Source of the DNA: an uncultured Pelagibacteraceae bacterium
GTDB lineage: Bacteria; Pseudomonadota; Alphaproteobacteria; Pelagibacterales; Pelagibacteraceae
DNA: 64,000 nt
Reading direction: 5' to 3'
Assembly: GCA_902560585.1 (NCBI GenBank)
Contig: CACEMI010000007.1
Span: 875 to 64,874, forward strand
In this document: positions 21,854 to 32,214 of the stretch, one piece after another
Position numbering within the stretch: position 1 is the first letter of the stretch
Layout: each line of letters starts with the position of its first letter
Translations under genes and position numbers: made by a program
Notes under the pieces: generated by a model
Databases searched by the model: none
What the model saw: only the letters and a program-made list of their open reading frames with translations
What the model was told of the DNA's origin: nothing

Positions 21854-22816
21854 TTATAAACCTAACCAGCCGTCAACTGTTGATTTATTTTTTGACATCC
21901 AATCTCTTGCAACTTCTCCTGGATCTCTTTTTTGCACAGAAACTTCGTATGCCATCCAAGAAACATCATCGGCTGTTATTTGAAAATTTTTGAAAAATTC
22001 TACAATTGCTGGAGATTTGCTCTCAAGAGATGTACCCCATCCAATTTGTATTTGTTTCAAAGCATCCTTTGAAGCAACATATGATTTTTGATACCAATCA
22101 GCGTCTGCTTTTGGTTGGATCATTTTATATTTTGCAGGATCATATGCTGGTTCCTCAAGCATAACTACGTCTGCCATACCCCATATTGCATGTGGTTTGT
22201 AGCAATAAAATGCATAACCCTCACCTTTTTTAATAGAGTCGAGAACTCTAGCATTTTTAACTGCTTCTGCTGCTCTGATAGGCTCAATTCCAGCATCATA
22301 TAATTTATAATCTCTTAATTTAACTTGGTTAACATTAGCTGAAGCCCATCCATCTGCACCAATCCAAAATTCACCTTTACCATTTCCATCGCTATCCATA
22401 GCTTTGACAACTTCGGGTCTACCTAAATCTTCTATTGCAGTGATATTCATTTTTTTTGCAAATTGTTGAGACACACAATATCCTTGGTTACCTTCGTAAG
22501 GATTTTTACTTAATTTTAGAGTTCCTTTTGGTACTAAATCATTTGTGTATGCTTCTTGGTTTGGAAGCCATATATCAGGATGAACTTCAATCTCACCTTT
22601 ACTTCTATCAATTGCTCCATAGATAGCAGTATTATTTCCTGGTACTAATTCAGCTTCACCACCCATTTTATCTATAACAACTGCCGCAAGTAAGTTTGCT
22701 ATTGCCGTAGCACCAGTCCAACCTGGATCACCAATTTTTACTTTTTCAGCAAAACTTGATACTGGTAAAAAAAGTGAAATTACTCCAGCAACAAGTATTT
22801 TTTTTATTATATTCAT
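21854..22816 (-). CDS. Betaine-family ABC substrate-binding protein (ProX/OpuAC family)
   Basis: Signal peptide, HPDIWLPN, DSDGNGKGEFWIG, GW and FYCYKPH motifs; heads the XVW operon. Confidence 0.88.
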   Translation of the reverse strand: MNIIKKILVAGVISLFLPVSSFAEKVKIGDPGWTGATAIANLLAAVVIDKMGGEAELVPGNNTAIYGAIDRSKGEIEVHPDIWLPNQEAYTNDLVPKGTLKLSKNPYEGNQGYCVSQQFAKKMNITAIEDLGRPEVVKAMDSDGNGKGEFWIGADGWASANVNQVKLRDYKLYDAGIEPIRAAEAVKNARVLDSIKKGEGYAFYCYKPHAIWGMADVVMLEEPAYDPAKYKMIQPKADADWYQKSYVASKDALKQIQIGWGTSLESKSPAIVEFFKNFQITADDVSWMAYEVSVQKRDPGEVARDWMSKNKSTVDGWLGL

Positions 22817-22931
22817 ATTTCCCTCGATTTTATTTAATTTATAAAAACAAATCTTAACTTTTTTTTAAATTATGAGTCAATGATTACAGTATGGTAAAAT
22901 GTTAATTCAGATATGCAAAAACCTAAAATGG

Positions 22932-24512: not shown

Positions 24513-25172
24513 TTATTTTGAAGGGTCAGGTACTTTTCTTAAATATGGTTTAACTGTTTCCCAACCATCTGGATAAATTTTCTTAGCCTCTTCATCTTTA
24601 ACTGCTGGAAGAATAACTACATCTTCACCTTTTTTCCAGTTAGCTGGTGTTGCAACTTTATGTTTTGCAGTAAGTTGCATTGAGTCTATGGCTCTTAAAA
24701 TTTCATGGAAATTTCTTCCTGTTGCCATAGGATAAGTTAAATAAAGACCAATTCTTTTATCTGGTCTTACAACAAAAATAGTTCTTACAGTCTCATTATC
24801 TACTGCAGTACGACCCATTGATGTTGTTCCTGCATCGGCTTCCAACATATTAAAAAGTTTTGCAACTTTTAAATCTTCGTCAGCGATTATAGGATAATCT
24901 GGCATTGTTCCAGACACATCTTTAATATCATTCAACCATTTTTTATGATCCTCTACCCCATCAACACTTAATCCAATAACTTTTACATTTCTTGCATCAA
25001 ACTCAGCTTTCATTTGTCCTAATGAACCTAATTCTGTTGTACAAACTGGTGTAAAATCTTTTGGGTGAGAAAATAAAACGCCCCAACTATCTCCAAGCCA
25101 CTCATGAAAAGAAATATCTCCTTCAGTAGTTTTGCATTGAAAATCTGGACACATACTGTTTATTTTAAGCAT
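24513..25172 (-). CDS. 1-Cys peroxiredoxin (Prx6 class)
   Basis: FSHPKDFTPVCTTELG, YPMATGRNF and ATPANW motifs. Confidence 0.95.
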   Translation of the reverse strand: MLKINSMCPDFQCKTTEGDISFHEWLGDSWGVLFSHPKDFTPVCTTELGSLGQMKAEFDARNVKVIGLSVDGVEDHKKWLNDIKDVSGTMPDYPIIADEDLKVAKLFNMLEADAGTTSMGRTAVDNETVRTIFVVRPDKRIGLYLTYPMATGRNFHEILRAIDSMQLTAKHKVATPANWKKGEDVVILPAVKDEEAKKIYPDGWETVKPYLRKVPDPSK

Positions 25173-25250
25173 ATAGTCTCTCCTTAATTATTATTTAGAA
25201 TAATTATAATCAAGATTGATTTGGTATGCAAATTTTAATAATCTTAAAAA

Positions 25251-25943
25251 ATGATATTTAATCAACTATTTGATCAAAAATCATCAACCTACACTTATAT
25301 TATATCGAGTGGTAAAGGGAGAGAAGCATTAATCATTGACCCTGTGATTGAACATACTGATGGATATATTAATTATTTAGAAAATTTAGATCTAAAATTG
25401 GTTAAAGTAATAGATACACATATTCATGCAGATCATGTAACTGGATTAAACGAATTAAACAAAAGAACAAATTGTACTCGTATAATGGGTGAAAATTCTA
25501 AATCTGAAGTTATTGATATTAAATTAAAAGATGAAGAAAATGTGAGTATTGAAAATATTAACCTTAAAGCTATTTACACCCCTGGTCATACTGACTGTTC
25601 TTATAGCTATCTAATGAAAGATAGAGTTTTCACAGGGGATACTCTTTTAATTAATGGAACTGGTAGAACTGACTTTCAAAATGGTAGTGCTCATCAGGCT
25701 TATGAGTCATTATTTGGTAAATTGTTAAAACTTCCTGAAGAAACGCTTGTATACCCTGCCCATGATTATAATGGAAAAAAAAATTCAACAATAGGTAATG
25801 AAAAAAATAATAACCCAAGACTTCAGGTTAGCTCAAAAGAGGAGTATGTTGAAATCATGGATAATCTTAATCTAACAAATCCAAAAATGATGGATGTAGC
25901 AGTTCCAGCGAATTTAAAGGGTTTGACGCTCAAAGAACTTTAA
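25251..25943 (+). CDS. Persulfide dioxygenase (ETHE1/Sdo-like metallo-beta-lactamase fold)
   Basis: QLFD..SSTYTY, THIHADHVTG, TPGHT, GRTDFQ, YPAHDY, NPRL and AVPANL motifs. Confidence 0.9.
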   Translation: MIFNQLFDQKSSTYTYIISSGKGREALIIDPVIEHTDGYINYLENLDLKLVKVIDTHIHADHVTGLNELNKRTNCTRIMGENSKSEVIDIKLKDEENVSIENINLKAIYTPGHTDCSYSYLMKDRVFTGDTLLINGTGRTDFQNGSAHQAYESLFGKLLKLPEETLVYPAHDYNGKKNSTIGNEKNNNPRLQVSSKEEYVEIMDNLNLTNPKMMDVAVPANLKGLTLKEL

Positions 25944-25997
25944 AATCAAGCTTTATAAAAGTGTTGTTTTTAGAAAATTAAGAATTATATAAGACTT

Positions 25998-26108
25998 ATG
26001 GTATGCAATAATTCACACTGCAAATGTAAAAACTGTTCTTGTGACAGATGTGTTTGTAAAAACTGTGATTGCAAACCATCATCAGAAAACTGCTGTTGTA
26101 ATAAGTAG
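25998..26108 (+). CDS. Cys-rich 36-aa peptide, metallothionein-like (absent from the ORF track)
   Basis: Hand translation MVCNNSHCKCKNCSCDRCVCKNCDCKPSSENCCCNK*: 12 Cys and 1 His, four CxC at period 5, terminal CCC. Confidence 0.8.
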   Translation: MVCNNSHCKCKNCSCDRCVCKNCDCKPSSENCCCNK

Positions 26109-26136
26109 TTTAATTTAAAATTTATCTTAAACATTT

Positions 26137-26718
26137 ATGAATGATTTTTTAGAGTCGATAATTAAAAGAGATCCTGCTGCAAGGTCAAAGTTAAGTTTAA
26201 TACTAACTTATCCTGGTGTTAAAGCTGTATTTTTTCATAGAATTGCGAACTTTTTTGCCGTAGCAAAATTTCATCTTTTAGCGAGAATAATTTCTCAATT
26301 TTCAAGATTTTTAACTGGTATTGAAATTCATCCAAACGCAAAAATTGGTAAAAATCTTTTTATTGATCATGGTATGGGAGTAGTTATTGGTGAAACTTCA
26401 GATATAGGTGATAATGTAACTATTTATCATATGGCAACATTAGGTGGAATTGCTCCAAGTATTAATTCAGATAATCAAAGAAATATTAAAAGACACCCAA
26501 CGCTAAAAGAAAATGTAGTTGTAGGATCTGGCGCACAAATACTTGGACCAGTTGTAGTTGGTAAAAATTCAAAAATTGGAGCTAATGCTGTAGTTACAAA
26601 AGATGTTCCAGAAAATGCAGTAATGGTTGGAATTCCTGCAAAAAATGTCGGAACCGCATCTGAAGAATTTAAACCCTATGGTGTTGCACCAGGGGGTGAT
26701 ACAAAGCTTGATGTATGA
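26137..26718 (+). CDS. cysE: Serine O-acetyltransferase
   Basis: [31 protein letters not shown] and hexapeptide repeats. Confidence 0.96.
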
Positions 26719-27716
26719 AAACTTTACAAAATAATTTTATCGAAGCAATAGGAAACACTCCTTTATTTAAATTAAAAGCTGCATCAGAAATTACTGGTTG
26801 TAATATTTATGGAAAAGCAGAGTACCTTAATCCAGGAGGCTCTGTAAAAGATAGAGCAGCTTTAGCTTTGATAAGAGACGCTGAAGAAAAAAAACTAATT
26901 TCAAAAGGAGGAATAATTGTTGAGGGGACTGCTGGCAATACTGGAATTGGTTTATGTCTTTTAGGAAATTCGATTGGTTACAAAACTATAATCGTAATGA
27001 ATGATAATCAAACACAAGAAAAAAAAGATTTATTAAGAAGTATAGGTGCTGATTTGAGATTGGTACCACCAAAACCATATAAAGATGAAAATAATTTTGT
27101 TAAGTATGCAGGTCGTTTAGCTGAAGAATTAAAAAGTAGCAATAATCATGGTGTCGTTTGGGCTAACCAATTCGATAATACTGCAAACATGAAAGGGCAT
27201 TATGAAACTACTGGACCTGAAATATGGGAACAAACTGAGGGAAAAGTTGATGGATTTGTTTGTTCTTCTGGAACTGGAGGAACTATTGCTGGAGTTAGTA
27301 GTTTTTTAAAAGAAAAGAATAAAAACATTAAAATATATTTATCGGATCCAACTGGTTCATCCCTATATAATTACATTGAAAATGGAGAATTAAAGAGTGA
27401 AGGTGGCTCGATAACCGAAGGTATTGGATCTAGTAGAGTTACTGCAAATTTTGCAAAAGCAAATATTGATGGAGCATTTTCAATAAGTGATCATGAGTCT
27501 TTACCTGTTTTATTCGATTTAATTGAAAAAGAAGGTCTTAGTTTAGGTACTAGTTGTGGGGTGAATATAGCTGGAGCTATTAGATTGGGTAAACTTTTAG
27601 GTCCTGGTAAAACGATTGTAACAATACTTTGTGATAAATCTGATAAATACAACTCAAAGATGTTTAATAAATCTTTTTTAAAAGAAAAAGGCCTTCCCTA
27701 TCCTCACTGGATATAA
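26715..27716 (+). CDS. cysK: Cysteine synthase (PLP-dependent O-acetylserine sulfhydrylase family)
   Basis: [29 protein letters not shown] and EGIG motifs; overlaps cysE. Confidence 0.9.
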
Positions 27717-27732
27717 TCACGCATAGCAGTAC

Positions 27733-27765
27733 TGTAATAAATTCATTACATTTCTATCTTATAAT
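27733..27765 (+). promoter_or_regulatory. Palindromic operator-like site plus -10 box upstream of the small-gene array
   Basis: TGTAATAAA/TTCATTACA (8 of 9 bp dyad) at 27733-27750; TATAAT at 27760-27765. Confidence 0.55.
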
Positions 27766-27801: not shown

Positions 27802-28185
27802 ATGGACGTAAAAGAACAAACTAAAAAAGCATATGAACTTTTTGGTTCTGGAGATATGGAAACATTTTTTAACGATATGATCGATGATGAAATCGTTTGG
27901 ACTTTTCCAGGTAAAGAAGGTGTACATCCACTTTCTGGAGTTCACAAAGGAAAACAAGCTATGATGGCTGCAATGTCTAAAATCCCAGCTACTTGGCCAA
28001 ATTTCCATTTAAAAGTTTTAGATATGATAAGTGAAGGAAATAAAGTTTTTGCAAGAGTTCATGCAACTGCAGATAACATGGATACTATGTTTGGTCACTA
28101 TTTTGAAGTAAGTGATGAGGGAAAAACTAAAGTTATGATGACTTTTGATGATACACTTAGCATGTTCAATGCAATGAAGAAGTAA
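27802..28185 (+). CDS. SnoaL/NTF2-like small protein
   Basis: KAYELFGSGD, DDEIVWTFPG..HPLSGVHKGK and ISEGNKV patterns; AAGGAG RBS. Confidence 0.85.
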   Translation: MDVKEQTKKAYELFGSGDMETFFNDMIDDEIVWTFPGKEGVHPLSGVHKGKQAMMAAMSKIPATWPNFHLKVLDMISEGNKVFARVHATADNMDTMFGHYFEVSDEGKTKVMMTFDDTLSMFNAMKK

Positions 28186-28193
28186 GGAACAAT

Positions 28194-28520
28194 ATGTCAA
28201 TTTTAGAAAAACTAAATAAAGCAATCATGGAAAAAGATGGTGCAGCAGCTGGTGAGCTGGTGCACGATGACTACAAAATGTTTTCCCATCTTAAAGGAGA
28301 ATATGTGCATATGGGTAAGGCAGGTATGGTTGAAGCCGTAAGTAAAGGGATGATGAGTCCCGCAAAATACAGGATCCTTTTTGAAAATGATGAAATTGGT
28401 TTTGATCATTCGTATGTTACTTATCAAGATGGAAATACAGAAGCTTTGATGTGCTGTTGGAAGTTTAAAGACGGTAAAATCATTGAATTAGAAACTGGAG
28501 CAACAAAAATACCAAAATAA
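28194..28520 (+). CDS. SnoaL/NTF2-like small protein (paralogue of 31012-31332)
   Basis: LVHDDY, ENDEIG and KDGKIIELETGAT; AAGGA RBS. Confidence 0.82.
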   Translation: MSILEKLNKAIMEKDGAAAGELVHDDYKMFSHLKGEYVHMGKAGMVEAVSKGMMSPAKYRILFENDEIGFDHSYVTYQDGNTEALMCCWKFKDGKIIELETGATKIPK

Positions 28521-28544
28521 CTATAAACTTACAAAGGAGTTAAT

Positions 28545-28610
28545 ATGGCCAGCATTGAGTTTAAAGCTTTTGATAAAGCATATGAATTTGCTGGGGTCTG
28601 GGGGGAATAA
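28545..28610 (+). pseudogene. 21-codon ORF with strong RBS; gene remnant or micropeptide
   Basis: AAAGGAG-ttaat-ATG; reads MASIEFKAFDKAYEFAGVWGE*; shares aaagcatatgaa with the 27802 gene. Confidence 0.4.
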
Positions 28611-28611
28611 A

Positions 28612-28881
28612 ATGGTAAAAATGGTTGGTAACTTTGAGGTAAAAGACTGGGCTCATTGGAAAAAAATGTTTGATGAACATTCTGGCCCAAGAGAAGCAGC
28701 AGGTATTAAAACTATTTACGTTGGAAATGAAATAGAAAATCCAAATAAAGTACATATTGTGATGGAAACACCAGCAGCAGACACTATGCAAAAATTTATG
28801 CAGAGCCCAGAGAATGCTAAAGTAATTGCGGAATCTGGACATAAACAAGAGACAACAGTAATGAGCGTTTGCTCTGATTAA
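28612..28881 (+). CDS. Small alpha+beta-barrel protein, DUF3764-like
   Basis: VKDWAHWKKMFD, NPNKVHIV and VIAESGH patterns; ATG at 28612 after a G-rich RBS. Confidence 0.7.
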   Translation: MVKMVGNFEVKDWAHWKKMFDEHSGPREAAGIKTIYVGNEIENPNKVHIVMETPAADTMQKFMQSPENAKVIAESGHKQETTVMSVCSD

Positions 28882-28907
28882 ATTAACAAAAAAAAAGGAG
28901 ATATATT

Positions 28908-29201
28908 ATGTTTGTAAAAATAGAACAAAAACTTTTAAAAGGTTTTAATTCTTGGAAGGAAATGATGCTTGCAAATAGTGAGAAACTTAAAAAGTATGGA
29001 ATGACAATAGCTTTTGCAGGTGCAGATAAAGAAGATGATAATGCTATGACTGTAGTTATTCATTTTGAATCACCCGAGGGCTTAAAAGGTTTTGGTGGAG
29101 ATGCAGAACTAACTCAAGCAAGAATAGATTCTGGAGTAATAATGGACCAATCTAAAATGACCATGATGACTGATGAATCTGTAATGAACCACAAAGGATA
29201 A
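28908..29201 (+). CDS. Small alpha+beta-barrel protein, DUF3764-like
   Basis: FNSWKEM, KEDDNAMTVVIHF and ARIDSGV; AAGGAG RBS. Confidence 0.65.
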   Translation: MFVKIEQKLLKGFNSWKEMMLANSEKLKKYGMTIAFAGADKEDDNAMTVVIHFESPEGLKGFGGDAELTQARIDSGVIMDQSKMTMMTDESVMNHKG

Positions 29202-29206
29202 TTCTA

Positions 29207-29692
29207 ATGATGAAAAAAATATATGTAATTATGTTTTTTTTAATATTTACAACATCAAGTTTTGCAGATGGTCATAAAGGAAAAATTGATCTTAAAGGTT
29301 TTATTGTTGGAGATAACAAATTTCTTACTGATAACGTGGGTAACTTTTTAACTTTTACTTACGATGGAGTTGGAGGATTAATGGCAGTCGAAGGTACAAC
29401 ATTCATGGATAATGCTTCACAATATTGCATTGGCGCAGGTACAATCCCAGGAAAGGGATTTGAAATGGGACACTGTAAAATAAATCAAATGGATGGGGAT
29501 ACTATTTTTACATACTACGAAATTCCACTTGGAGACTCAATGAATGGTACATTTAAATGCTTAGGGGGAACAGGAAAATATAAAGGTATAGAATGTAGTG
29601 GCGCAACAGGTTACACACAAATTAACTCAGCCCAAGAAAATAAATTTGCCTCATCAATTTATTTTAAAGGTGGATATTCTTTAATGAAATAA
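29207..29692 (+). CDS. Secreted beta-rich hypothetical protein (allene-oxide-cyclase/dirigent-like barrel possible)
   Basis: Signal peptide ending SFA, four Cys, GGTGKYKGI motif. Confidence 0.65.
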   Translation: MMKKIYVIMFFLIFTTSSFADGHKGKIDLKGFIVGDNKFLTDNVGNFLTFTYDGVGGLMAVEGTTFMDNASQYCIGAGTIPGKGFEMGHCKINQMDGDTIFTYYEIPLGDSMNGTFKCLGGTGKYKGIECSGATGYTQINSAQENKFASSIYFKGGYSLMK

Positions 29693-29745
29693 TTGAATAA
29701 TCATTAGATTAATTTAAAATACGAAATAAAAAAAAGGAAAAAAAA

Positions 29746-30033
29746 ATGAAATACTATATGGTAACTCACACTTTTAAATCTAAAGAAATGAAAGACAAAT
29801 TTAACGAGGTTTTAGGCGGCATGTCCAGAGAAGATATGATTAAATCTTCCACTAGCGATAAAGCTAAATGCCAAATGACATATTACACTCCAGGTGATAC
29901 TATGACAATGTTTTGTCATTGGATGGCAGAAAGTACTGATGCTATTAATGAACAGCTTTCTCAGATGAATGATTTTTTTGAACCTCACCAATTTACTGAG
30001 GTTAAAGAAGAAGTTTTCGATTTTAACAAATAG
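29746..30033 (+). CDS. Small alpha+beta-barrel hypothetical protein (DUF4242/DUF3303-like)
   Basis: YMVTHTF start and FCHWMAESTDAI pattern; AAGGA RBS. Confidence 0.6.
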   Translation: MKYYMVTHTFKSKEMKDKFNEVLGGMSREDMIKSSTSDKAKCQMTYYTPGDTMTMFCHWMAESTDAINEQLSQMNDFFEPHQFTEVKEEVFDFNK

Positions 30034-30042
30034 GAGGAAAAA

Positions 30043-30333
30043 ATGGAAAAAGAAGTTTTAGTGATCGTAGATTTGAAAGAAGGAAAACTTGAAAAATTTA
30101 TGGGATGGATGCAATCAGATGAGGGTATGAGTGTAAGAAAATCAGCAGCTCATCCAGAAAAAACTATAGGAGCAGTAAAGCCAGATAAAAGTGGTGTAAT
30201 GTTTAAAGTATTTGTTCATAATATGGAAAAAATGAAAGAACTAGTATCTGGCACACATCCAGTTGCTAAGCCAATTTACGATGAGTGTGTTGAGAAAATG
30301 ACTGCTTGGGATTTGACTAAAGTTGAAATGTAA
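30043..30333 (+). CDS. Small hypothetical protein, probable ferredoxin-like alpha+beta fold
   Basis: AGGAGG RBS; VIVDLKEGKLEKF start resembles ABM/Dabb proteins. Confidence 0.6.
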   Translation: MEKEVLVIVDLKEGKLEKFMGWMQSDEGMSVRKSAAHPEKTIGAVKPDKSGVMFKVFVHNMEKMKELVSGTHPVAKPIYDECVEKMTAWDLTKVEM

Positions 30334-30334
30334 T

Positions 30335-30658
30335 ATGGCAAAATATTATGTAATTGGAAAAGTAAGTAAGGAGCTTTTACATCGAATGCAGAAAGATCCA
30401 TCAGCTGACAGATTTGCTTCAACAAAAAAAGTTGTTGAAGCTGTAGGAGGTAAAATGATTAGTTATGAGTGGGTTCGTGGTAGATTTGATGTAATGTGTT
30501 GCGTTGAAGGAGACGCTGAAACTGTTGTTGGAATGAAAGTAGCTTTTTTAAATTCAGGACTTATGGATGAATTAATGATCCATGAGGTAATTGATTATAA
30601 TAAAGCATTTGGAAAAGCTGCTGATGCAGCCAAATCAGTAGTCAAACCCGCAGAATAA
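30335..30658 (+). CDS. GYD-domain protein
   Basis: MAKYYVIG, DR...KKVVEAVGGK and RGRFDV patterns; ATG at 30335. Confidence 0.75.
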   Translation: MAKYYVIGKVSKELLHRMQKDPSADRFASTKKVVEAVGGKMISYEWVRGRFDVMCCVEGDAETVVGMKVAFLNSGLMDELMIHEVIDYNKAFGKAADAAKSVVKPAE

Positions 30659-30689
30659 ATTATAATTAATTTATTGAAAGGAGAAGATA

Positions 30690-30977
30690 ATGAGCGCATA
30701 TCTATTGGCGAATATAACAGTAAATAACCCTGAGAATTACAAAGAGTACGTTGAGAAAGTAAAATCCATTGTTGAAAAATTTGATGGAGAGTATTTGGTT
30801 AGAGGGGGAGAAATGTCTGTTATAGAAGGTGATTGGCCTCACAAAAGAAATATTGTTATTAAATTTCCATCTCATGAAAAAGCAATGGAGTGGTACAATT
30901 CTGAAGAATATAAACCAATTAGACAAATAAGACACGACAATGCTGTGTCAAATTCTATAATTGTTGATGGAGTTTAA
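30690..30977 (+). CDS. DUF1330 domain protein
   Basis: GEYLVRGG, EGDW..RNIVIKFPS and WYNSEEY motifs. Confidence 0.9.
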   Translation: MSAYLLANITVNNPENYKEYVEKVKSIVEKFDGEYLVRGGEMSVIEGDWPHKRNIVIKFPSHEKAMEWYNSEEYKPIRQIRHDNAVSNSIIVDGV

Positions 30978-31011
30978 ATATAATAATTTTACAAAAACTA
31001 AGGAGATTAAA

Positions 31012-31332
31012 ATGTCAATATTAGAAAAATATAGCGCGGCTATAAAAGATAAAGATGAAGCAGCAATGAATGAGCTTTTGCATGATGATTTTAAATTTAC
31101 TATGCATAAATCAGGTAATACTTTAAGCAAATCTGATGTGATCAAATGGGCCATGAGTGGAGATATTAAACAGAGAGACACTAGAATTATTTACGAAAAT
31201 GATGAGGTTGGAGTACATCATGCCTTTGTAACATTTGACGATGGTAATGTTGAAGCAGTAATGGCAGTTTACAAATATGATAATGGAAAAATCATGAGTT
31301 TAGAGACTGGCGCAACTCCTATGCCAAAATAA
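31012..31332 (+). CDS. SnoaL/NTF2-like small protein (paralogue of 28194-28520)
   Basis: AAGGAG RBS, ATG at 31012; LLHDDF, YENDEVG and LETGATPMPK. Confidence 0.82.
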   Translation: MSILEKYSAAIKDKDEAAMNELLHDDFKFTMHKSGNTLSKSDVIKWAMSGDIKQRDTRIIYENDEVGVHHAFVTFDDGNVEAVMAVYKYDNGKIMSLETGATPMPK

Positions 31333-31829
31333 TGAAAAAGCTTATACTTTTATTTGTTTTAATAGCCTTTAATTCAAATGCAGCGTCAATGAAGATGATT
31401 GGATCTAAGGGTGATCCGAATGAAGTAACCAGAGTAATAGAAGTAAAGATGTATGACAATTATTATGAACCAAGCTCAATTAAAGTGAAAAAAGGTGAAA
31501 CTGTAAAAATAATTGTAAAAAATTTGGGTGAACTTGTTCATGAATATAATATTGCTACAAAAGAGATGCATATAAAACATCAGCCTGAAATGGCAAGATT
31601 AATAGAGCATGATATTTTATTAGGAGATAGTATCGATCATGCTAAGATGAAAGAAATGTCTAAAAAAGATCACTCGCTTGGGCATAAACATGCTAATAGC
31701 GTGATGTTAGAACCTAGTAAAACTGGAGAGATAATTTGGAAATTTTCCAAAGATATAGCTTTAGAAATGGCATGCAATATTCCTGGTCATTACGAAAGTG
31801 GAATGGTTGGGCCAATAATTATTGAGTAA
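31332..31829 (+). CDS. Periplasmic cupredoxin with His/Met-rich insert (CopI-like)
   Basis: Signal peptide, GELVHEY, ACNIPGHYESGM type-1 Cu site, DHAKMKEMSKKDHSLGHKH insert. Confidence 0.85.
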   Translation: MKKLILLFVLIAFNSNAASMKMIGSKGDPNEVTRVIEVKMYDNYYEPSSIKVKKGETVKIIVKNLGELVHEYNIATKEMHIKHQPEMARLIEHDILLGDSIDHAKMKEMSKKDHSLGHKHANSVMLEPSKTGEIIWKFSKDIALEMACNIPGHYESGMVGPIIIE

Positions 31830-31878: not shown

Positions 31879-32214
31879 ATGAGTAATATAACTTCTTACA
31901 TAATATTAATTATTGCAGTTGCTTTAGGGACTGCTGCAAATGGATTTGCTAAAGCTGCGAATGGTTTTACAATTTTTTTACCAAGTATTTTTACTGCGAT
32001 AGCTATAATTGCTTGTATGTACACATTGTCCTTAGTTATGAAAACTATACCTGTTGGAATAACTTATGCTTCATTTGCTGGATTATGTATAATTGCAACT
32101 TCTATAGTTGGAATTTACAAATTTAATCAAATTCCAGACTTATTTACAATCATTGGTCTAATACTAATCATTTCAGGAGTATTGATTGTAAATTTAGTTG
32201 GAAAATCAAGTTAA
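31879..32214 (+). CDS. SMR-family small membrane transporter lacking the Glu14 equivalent
   Basis: 111 aa, four TM helices, KAANGFT and IPVGITYASFAGL. Confidence 0.82.
   Translation: MSNITSYIILIIAVALGTAANGFAKAANGFTIFLPSIFTAIAIIACMYTLSLVMKTIPVGITYASFAGLCIIATSIVGIYKFNQIPDLFTIIGLILIISGVLIVNLVGKSS

Follow-up and report, generated by a model that had tools for sequence, protein, structure and literature searches.

Why would a streamlined marine bacterium keep a row of ten small protein genes behind cysK, and what does that row do? The question is raised by positions 27802–31332 of a 64,000-nucleotide (nt) stretch from an uncultured Pelagibacteraceae bacterium (assembly GCA_902560585.1, contig CACEMI010000007.1, positions 875 to 64,874; hereafter the window), where an earlier note, made from the letters alone, had described a tandem array of open reading frames (ORFs) with strong ribosome-binding sites (RBSs). 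In architecture and evolution the array is well supported as a selected, variable, operon-like island that is pruned by deletion and probably restocked via recombination. As to function, we favour, at about even balance, a variable operon-like row of methionine-rich pocket proteins that would form a population-level kit whose members bind small organic molecules or neutralise them.

Architecture of the array

The ten co-oriented ORFs (89–161 amino acids, aa; individual lengths in Table 1) lie between cysK, upstream, and genes for a CopI-like cupredoxin and then an SMR-family protein, downstream. Together with these last two they form a co-oriented run of 12 genes of at most 170 aa, the longest in the window's genome (G000; 86% complete, 1,209 predicted genes), in which the next longest run has six. 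Both the row itself and the strong RBSs reported on most of its members proved correct: an RBS core (AGGA, GGAG or GAGG) precedes 8/10 array genes versus 236/1,199 others (Fisher p=8e-5), a background that is if anything high, as gene-start calls favoured RBSs. The two genes lacking a strong RBS, ORF3 and ORF8, start 1 nt past the upstream stop. Spacers measure 1–53 nt, except for one of 91 nt that contains a cupin gene remnant, and base composition is not atypical (GC 32–34% vs 29–33% in the flanking kilobases). Promoter, terminator and repeat scans of the array returned nothing beyond chance. Three features are new beyond the earlier note, namely the cupin remnant (28545–28610), an enrichment in methionine (Met) and a conserved leader.

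Variation of gene content and order between strains

Loci were collected as post-cysK stretches from 80 of 132 cysK-positive genomes, 20 regions found via an ORF9 match (7 without cysK), the best 80 of 129 found via an ORF7 match, and 16 more. With identical arrays removed, 162 loci gave 91 arrangements of 0–11 genes from a pool of about 17 families, and 38/104 co-occurring family pairs were found in both orders. The last gene belongs to the ORF10 family in 130/142 arrays, while the first is drawn from nine families. Unrelated enzymes are sometimes inserted between cysK and the array, and nine loci scored 0 genes, including some with an unrelated gene inserted behind cysK. The expected variability between strains was therefore seen when the interval was compared across relatives, which share no fixed gene set, and the slot behind cysK has the marks of a flexible island: variable content, conserved flanks (the terminal NTF2 gene included) and one position.

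Among 54 distinct close loci (CysK at least 93% identical) a fixed master order carries 16 content patterns. Since ORF7 was the bait for most of these loci, its constant presence is in part a product of the sampling; the eight fetched via cysK (L041–L048) all have ORF1, 7, 8, 9 and 10. Across the 54 loci the ratio pN/pS is 0.04–0.33 for array genes and 0.03 for cysK, and purifying selection on the array genes is supported. An ORF7 profile found matches in 64/151 genomes across the order, every one belonging to the window's family (the unpublished G237 is one match). ORF7 was not seen in viral contigs, in 20 sister-family genomes or in 299/300 class-level genomes.

In strain HTCC1062, cysK is SAR11_0789 and qacH is SAR11_0786, with only two locus tags between them (PMC2704228, PMC13198564), so this strain nearly lacks the array; SAR11_0788 is given as an unknown protein in the available part of PMC13198564. 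The published literature searched held no expression data for SAR11_0787/0788.

Two side observations concern the left end of the array. At the type-B loci (L086–L120) a 138-aa membrane-protein gene (family F8) stands inverted between cysK and the array in many lineages, and the leader there is longer, retaining the upstream element together with half of the palindrome. At L194 the CysK ORF is 486 aa long and continues into the ORF1 region, through a lost stop or an assembly error.

Deletion scars and exchange of genes

Loss of genes has left two scars in the window, and it is for these two alone that the direction of change is proven. The cupin remnant stems from an in-frame internal deletion of 285 nt between short look-alike sequences; it retains its RBS, abuts ORF3, and is present in 25/54 close loci, one with a different junction. 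It is frameshifted or stopped in some of L046, L159, L160, L167, L139 and L136, and in several such loci the following gene gains a better RBS by the change, which suggests that the remnant may be kept to initiate ORF3. The second scar, between ORF5 and ORF6, is what remains, at the 3' end, of a 142-aa gene (family F35). ORF6 and F35 are together in 0/54 close loci; the idea that they alternate in one slot was dropped, as the F35 scar sits ahead of ORF6. When content differences were aligned, 7/8 broke at stops, A-tracts, spacers or RBSs, removing whole genes, and 1/8 inside the cupin gene.

Exchange between lineages may underlie two further patterns. Between-locus distances are poorly correlated for most gene pairs (Spearman −0.04 to 0.39; up to 0.79 for neighbours). 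Among loci whose CysK is at most 85% identical, 74/1,037 ORF1 pairs and 45/752 ORF6 pairs are at least 95% identical, reflecting few independent events in either case, and family F21 has 8/89 near-identical cross-lineage pairs; 7/8 neighbouring genes taken as controls have no such pair.

The statement that this is not an integron is borne out. The integron integrase model TIGR02249 gave one match in this 86% complete genome, far under cut-off and on another contig, and the genome's single distant tyrosine recombinase is likewise on another contig. Integron attC sites are imperfect palindromes of 57–141 nt; the array spacers share no repeat or palindrome and have no Rfam match, in scans that did not include a dedicated attC model. 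With PADLOC and PHROG the ten proteins gave one weak (E 0.004) and two weak matches, respectively, and do not qualify as defence genes or prophage cargo.

The leader and expression of the array

The leader comprises a 10-nt upstream element (27720–27729), an 18-bp palindrome (27733–27750) and a −10 hexamer (27760–27765), with no −35 element. Its first 31 nt (27720–27750) score 45.8 with a self-trained matrix, the next-best site in the genome scoring 8.5, and an exact match occurs once per genome in 64/151 genomes of the genus (reversed control, 0). The motif TAnnnT stands 9 nt behind the element in 54/62 leaders, and TTG occupies the −35 slot in 0/62. At locus L082 the leader lies directly before a displaced array, 6.4 kb from cysK. 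A palindrome and a −10 hexamer without a −35 are the layout of an activator-dependent promoter, which is what we predict the leader to be.

Two other identities were considered for it. A hairpin of RNA or terminator of cysK was rejected, since the median folding energy is −2.8 kcal/mol, the loop is conserved and the element moves with the array, even though one leader position pair covaries. A Pho box was also rejected: genomes G150 and G100 (99% and 97% complete) have the leader and no PhoB over cut-off. PhoB was found in 3/5 tested genomes, and G000 has four OmpR-type genes, PhoB among them. The leader resembles PhoB/OmpR-type promoters (Pho box) in having an 18-bp box with an AT-rich centre 9–10 nt before the −10 and no −35, whereas its halves are inverted and those of the Pho box are direct repeats.

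A search for a wider regulon found no second full leader site in G000. The 10-nt element recurs at 22859–22868 (minus strand), about 90 nt upstream of a gene for a 320-aa ProX-like binding protein (21854–22816), an arrangement present in just 4/20 relatives, the closest ones. The labels ProX and AzoR for families on the window's side are our presumption. According to PMC11485210, no high-affinity ligand has been confirmed for the HTCC1062 proX protein.

Contigs from seven RNA libraries (seven studies) map to the array, and some of them bridge ORF1-ORF2-remnant-ORF3, ORF3-4-5, ORF5-6-7, ORF7-8 and ORF10-copI. Joints in these contigs match variants seen in genomes, from which ORF4, ORF4-5 or ORF3-5 is missing. 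The genes cannot be ranked by contig depth, nor can transcript starts be read from contig ends. Co-expression as one operon is likely, given the one leader, the 1–53-nt spacers and the RNA contigs that cross several junctions.

Folds of the ten proteins

Pfam cut-offs were exceeded by ORF1 (SnoaL_2), ORF3 (DUF3764), ORF9 (DUF1330) and ORF10 (DUF4440); ORF2 (DUF4440), ORF4 (DUF3764), ORF6 (SCO4226-like) and ORF8 (GYD) matched below them, ORF5 and ORF7 had no Pfam match, and none of the ten was over cut-off in NCBIfam. ORF2 and ORF10 are paralogs (46% identity), and ORF4 is homologous to the ORF3 family (profile match probability 96.7). The predicted tally is three SnoaL/NTF2-like proteins, six ferredoxin-like alpha+beta-barrels (two from firm Pfam matches, three from weak ones and one from a predicted structure) and one dirigent/allene-oxide-cyclase (AOC) type barrel. 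It agrees with the first description, which had three SnoaL/NTF2-like proteins, two of DUF3764 type, one GYD, one DUF1330, two further ferredoxin folds (here ORF6, by weak Pfam, and ORF7, by predicted structure) and one secreted barrel (ORF5, whose N-terminus is signal-like as judged by eye).

The ORF7 model (pLDDT 97) matched ABM/NIPSNAP-type barrels in Foldseek (E 3e-4, TM 0.67), and by VIA it has the ferredoxin-like monomer fold (Z 9.0, root-mean-square deviation [rmsd] 2.5 over 86 residues). The eight-stranded ORF5 model (pLDDT 86.5) matched dirigent proteins and the Diels-Alderase PloI4 best, loosely (E 1e-4, TM about 0.5, rmsd 5–6), and no named family was found for it in the ESM Atlas. 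Both proteins are less than 20% identical to solved structures, whose catalytic residues are unmatched in them. A PDB sequence search gave no match for ORF6, in which His8, Cys42, Cys57 and Trp59 are invariant; for ORF1 the best match was 1tuh (E=1e-4), which we take to be the cassette protein Bal32a.

Comparison of profiles for 21 families linked only ORF3 with ORF4 and, weakly, two NTF2 types, signal-peptide matches aside, so the barrels of the array are not recent duplicates. Two cupins and an ABM-like protein join these in the wider pool, and alignments show invariant polar residues retained in every family. Folds of the SnoaL/NTF2, alpha+beta-barrel and dirigent/AOC types enclose cavities that serve cofactor-free cyclases and oxygenases as well as binding proteins. 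The folds predicted or profile-matched for all ten proteins are those of ABM, NIPSNAP, LsrG, olivetolic acid cyclase and SCO4226, of SnoaL/NTF2, and of dirigent/AOC, families whose characterised members sit singly in pathways.

Methionine enrichment

Methionine makes up 73/1,071 residues of the array proteins (6.8%) versus 1.9% for all other genes, 1.7% in 262 small proteins (p=4e-7) and 2.5% in 58 strong-RBS genes, and Leu and Ile are about halved. ORF6, ORF1, ORF4 and ORF7 are the four most Met-rich of the genome's 1,209 proteins; ORF9 (2.1%) is the sole array member of ordinary content, and ORF9, the cupins and family F7 range over 1–2.4%. When the members of a family are aligned, Met positions are otherwise occupied mostly by Ile, Leu, Val or Phe, and each family has 0–5 conserved Met columns. 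AT bias does not explain this richness, because ORF6 relatives on contigs of 41–55% GC stay Met-rich (6.6–10% among the examples listed).

The 1.2-Mb genome G000 has three genes of the MsrA (methionine sulfoxide reductase) family, at C14:6739-7182, C3:29728-30201 and C6:51886-52338, one of which has a tandem pair of DUF1330 paralogs (C14:4579-5210) 1.5 kb away.

Arrays in other lineages

Pool genes also form arrays away from cysK, at L208–L211, L207 and L275. In the sister-genus arrays (L208–L211) the ORF6-family protein is 99% identical to one from the window's genus; an alphaproteobacterium of another family (G319) has four pool genes that are 57–68% identical, and a third (G593, 47% GC) has a six-gene array at L275:73-2498. 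Occurrence at class level is rare (1/300 and 1/400 genomes). The genes at L275 read, in part by eye, as a double DUF6854, a cupin, an NTF2-like gene (this one by eye), a Cupin_7, a GYD and an ORF6-like gene. At L213 (G228:C1) a solitary ORF7 homolog stands directly downstream of a sequence resembling a transfer-messenger RNA (tmRNA) tag, as judged by eye; tmRNA genes are typical integration sites.

Features and neighbours of the array

The features are collected in Table 1. The CopI-like gene follows the array in the window's clade and not genus-wide, and the genes around arrays in general code for redox- or efflux-type proteins (1-Cys peroxiredoxin, SMR, CMD, DsbA-like, glyoxalase). Upstream in the window (24513–27716) lies a thiol module, in which a 1-Cys peroxiredoxin gene points away from the genes for a metallo-beta-lactamase-fold protein, CysE and CysK.

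Table 1. Coordinates (window positions) of the array, its parts and its immediate neighbours.
Feature	Position	Strand	Basis or remark
cysK (cysteine synthase), homology anchor on the left of the variable slot	26715..27716	+	Pfam PALP; array follows cysK across the genus
Conserved leader	27720..27765	+	Predicted activator-dependent promoter
ORF1, SnoaL_2/NTF2-like, 127 aa, 9.5% Met	27802..28185	+	Pfam over cut-off
ORF2, NTF2/DUF4440-like, 108 aa	28194..28520	+	Pfam below cut-off; ORF10 paralog
Cupin remnant, 21 codons	28545..28610	+	Relatives have the intact gene (cupin by Pfam, below cut-off)
ORF3, DUF3764, 89 aa	28612..28881	+	Pfam over cut-off
ORF4, DUF3764-like, 97 aa, 9.4% Met	28908..29201	+	Pfam weak; ORF3-family profile match
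ORF5, predicted dirigent/AOC-type beta-barrel, 161 aa	29207..29692	+	Predicted structure
F35 scar, 3' end and downstream spacer of deleted 142-aa gene	29693..29723	+	
ORF6, weakly SCO4226/DUF4242-like, 95 aa, 9.6% Met	29746..30033	+	Pfam below cut-off
ORF7, predicted dimeric alpha+beta-barrel (ABM/NIPSNAP-like), 96 aa	30043..30333	+	No Pfam; predicted structure
ORF8, GYD-like, 107 aa	30335..30658	+	Pfam below cut-off
ORF9, DUF1330, 95 aa, 2.1% Met	30690..30977	+	Pfam over cut-off
ORF10, NTF2/DUF4440, 106 aa, right homology anchor	31012..31332	+	Pfam over cut-off
CopI-like cupredoxin, overlaps ORF10 stop	31332..31829	+	Pfam; below NCBIfam cut-off
SMR-family efflux protein, usual downstream neighbour	31879..32214	+	Pfam/NCBIfam

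Discussion

In the reading that we favour, an activator would bind the 18-bp palindrome that occupies the −35 position, and each gene would be a portable unit by virtue of an RBS of its own or of coupling to the stop before it. Deletions running from one short look-alike sequence to another, at stops, A-tracts and RBSs, would remove genes; these would come back, or new ones enter, through homologous recombination in the stretch bounded by cysK/leader and the terminal NTF2 gene. Met in place of Leu and Ile may give pliable cores or pockets, and strains carrying different subsets would let the population cover more compounds than one cell.

Several points weigh against this account. A shared fold by itself shows no function, and the pocket roles are drawn from folds and neighbours; for ORF7 the best structural Z-scores (8–9) are barely above the usual background. 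Many distant ORF6 relatives are solitary (e.g. L223, L224). As many as 87/151 genomes are without the exact leader pattern, among them other leader types and incomplete assemblies, and, the leader region being AT-rich, the TAnnnT motif turns up at two further offsets (4, in 40/62 leaders, and 14, in 25/62; 0–5 leaders at any other offset). The RNA runs were picked for containing the stretch and their contigs are unstranded, with DNA carry-over possible; among the contigs listed, no piece bridges ORF8-9 or ORF9-10. Clean breakpoints could reflect selection for harmless deletions and not a mechanism, and near-identical cross-lineage pairs make up less than 1% in 10/15 array families, nine of which have none; in a listing by family they are below 1% for ORF7, ORF8 and F7 and number 0–1 in nine families.

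A bolder version of the same reading can be put forward tentatively: the locus may be a recombinase-free analogue of an integron, in which an activator-controlled promoter would drive portable genes for Met-lined pocket proteins from an ocean-wide pool. Genes would then be excised at the repeated RBS and stop sequences and inserted by way of the flanking homology, and SAR11 and other streamlined marine alphaproteobacteria would share a distributed toolkit for dissolved organic matter.

The array might instead be a permissive, strongly expressed landing site in which small genes with unrelated jobs gather, short RBS-bearing genes being easily gained and lost. We think this unlikely, though it would accommodate the mixture of folds and compartments (secreted and membrane families included), the single pool members elsewhere in G000, the enzymes that intrude behind cysK and the frequently solitary distant relatives of ORF6. 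A mere landing site does not account for the same families re-forming arrays elsewhere (in the sister genus and, with one case at 47% GC, in two further families), nor for the common Met enrichment, the conserved leader and the conserved terminal gene.

Could the methionine itself be the point, as a sacrificial oxidant sink recycled by methionine sulfoxide reductase or as a buffer for Cu(I) and other soft metals beside CopI? That the genome's top four Met-rich proteins stand in one row, with a CopI-like gene overlapping ORF10 and three MsrA-family genes in the genome, speaks for it, as does the nickel binder SCO4226 in the ORF6-like family (according to the available part of PMC4186839). Yet Met takes the place of Leu and Ile at hydrophobic positions, CopI stands behind the array in some clades only, the Met-poor ORF9, cupins and F7 belong to the same pool, and by eye the invariant His/Cys/Trp of ORF6 are unlike the His/Asp/Ser/Glu nickel ligands of SCO4226, all of which makes a Met-based action unlikely.

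Storage of reduced sulfur as Met-rich protein when dimethylsulfoniopropionate or sulfide is plentiful, by read-through from cysE-cysK, is highly improbable. SAR11 requires reduced sulfur (as stated in the available part of PMC5069961) and the row does follow a metallo-beta-lactamase-fold gene, cysE and cysK; against this, the array's own leader travels with it, arrays lie apart from cysK in other lineages, and the many folds keep conserved polar residues and include several Met-poor members.

Descent from an integron, as a cluster of attC sites lacking integrase (CALIN) whose integrase and attC sites are both gone, would fit the small RBS-bearing co-oriented genes, the leader-proximal variability (first gene from nine families) and the match of ORF1 to 1tuh, and is nonetheless largely refuted, with barely any likelihood left: the 1–53-nt spacers hold no common repeat, palindrome or Rfam match, no IntI is over cut-off beside a lone distant tyrosine recombinase on another contig, and the master order is fixed within the clade. 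A single fixed biosynthetic pathway such as polyketide tailoring, to which the nearest solved folds (polyketide cyclases and Diels-Alderases among them) might point, is hardly credible, being refuted by a content of 0–11 genes in 91 arrangements and having no synthase beside the row within the window.

The selected, variable pocket-protein island that we favour is nearest in kind to the SAR11 flexible islands (Molina-Pardines et al. 2025, PMC11796062; Wilhelm et al. 2007, PMC2217521), which, in the available parts of these papers, likewise hold variable genes between conserved flanks, with few or no integrases and with indel genes under purifying selection. Those islands are mostly described there as single genes or paralog swaps, whereas here up to 11 non-homologous cavity-fold genes are re-ordered, and unlike them the array has one conserved leader, a Met-rich composition and deletions at gene boundaries. 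Integron arrays (Sureshan et al. 2013, PMC3548836, as far as available; Bal32a) resemble it in how it would work, with small co-oriented pocket-protein genes behind one (here predicted) promoter, variability near the leader and, here probably, cross-lineage exchange, and differ in that the array has no IntI, no attC-like repeats, spacers of 1–53 nt and a clade-fixed order. The earlier note knew of no described system with this layout, and the literature searched yielded no description of the array either; the island and ortholog tables of PMC11796062 (S2), PMC13712998 and bioRxiv 10.64898/2026.08.15.744057, sources available in part, may list the locus undiscussed.

The array is a widespread, selected locus in the most abundant marine bacteria that is nearly absent from the model strain HTCC1062. 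Its roughly 17 small proteins are suited to direct ligand screens, and the single-copy predicted promoter element points to a regulator in cells with very few regulators. The locus also offers a tractable case of a streamlined genome that shuffles accessory genes without mobile-element machinery.

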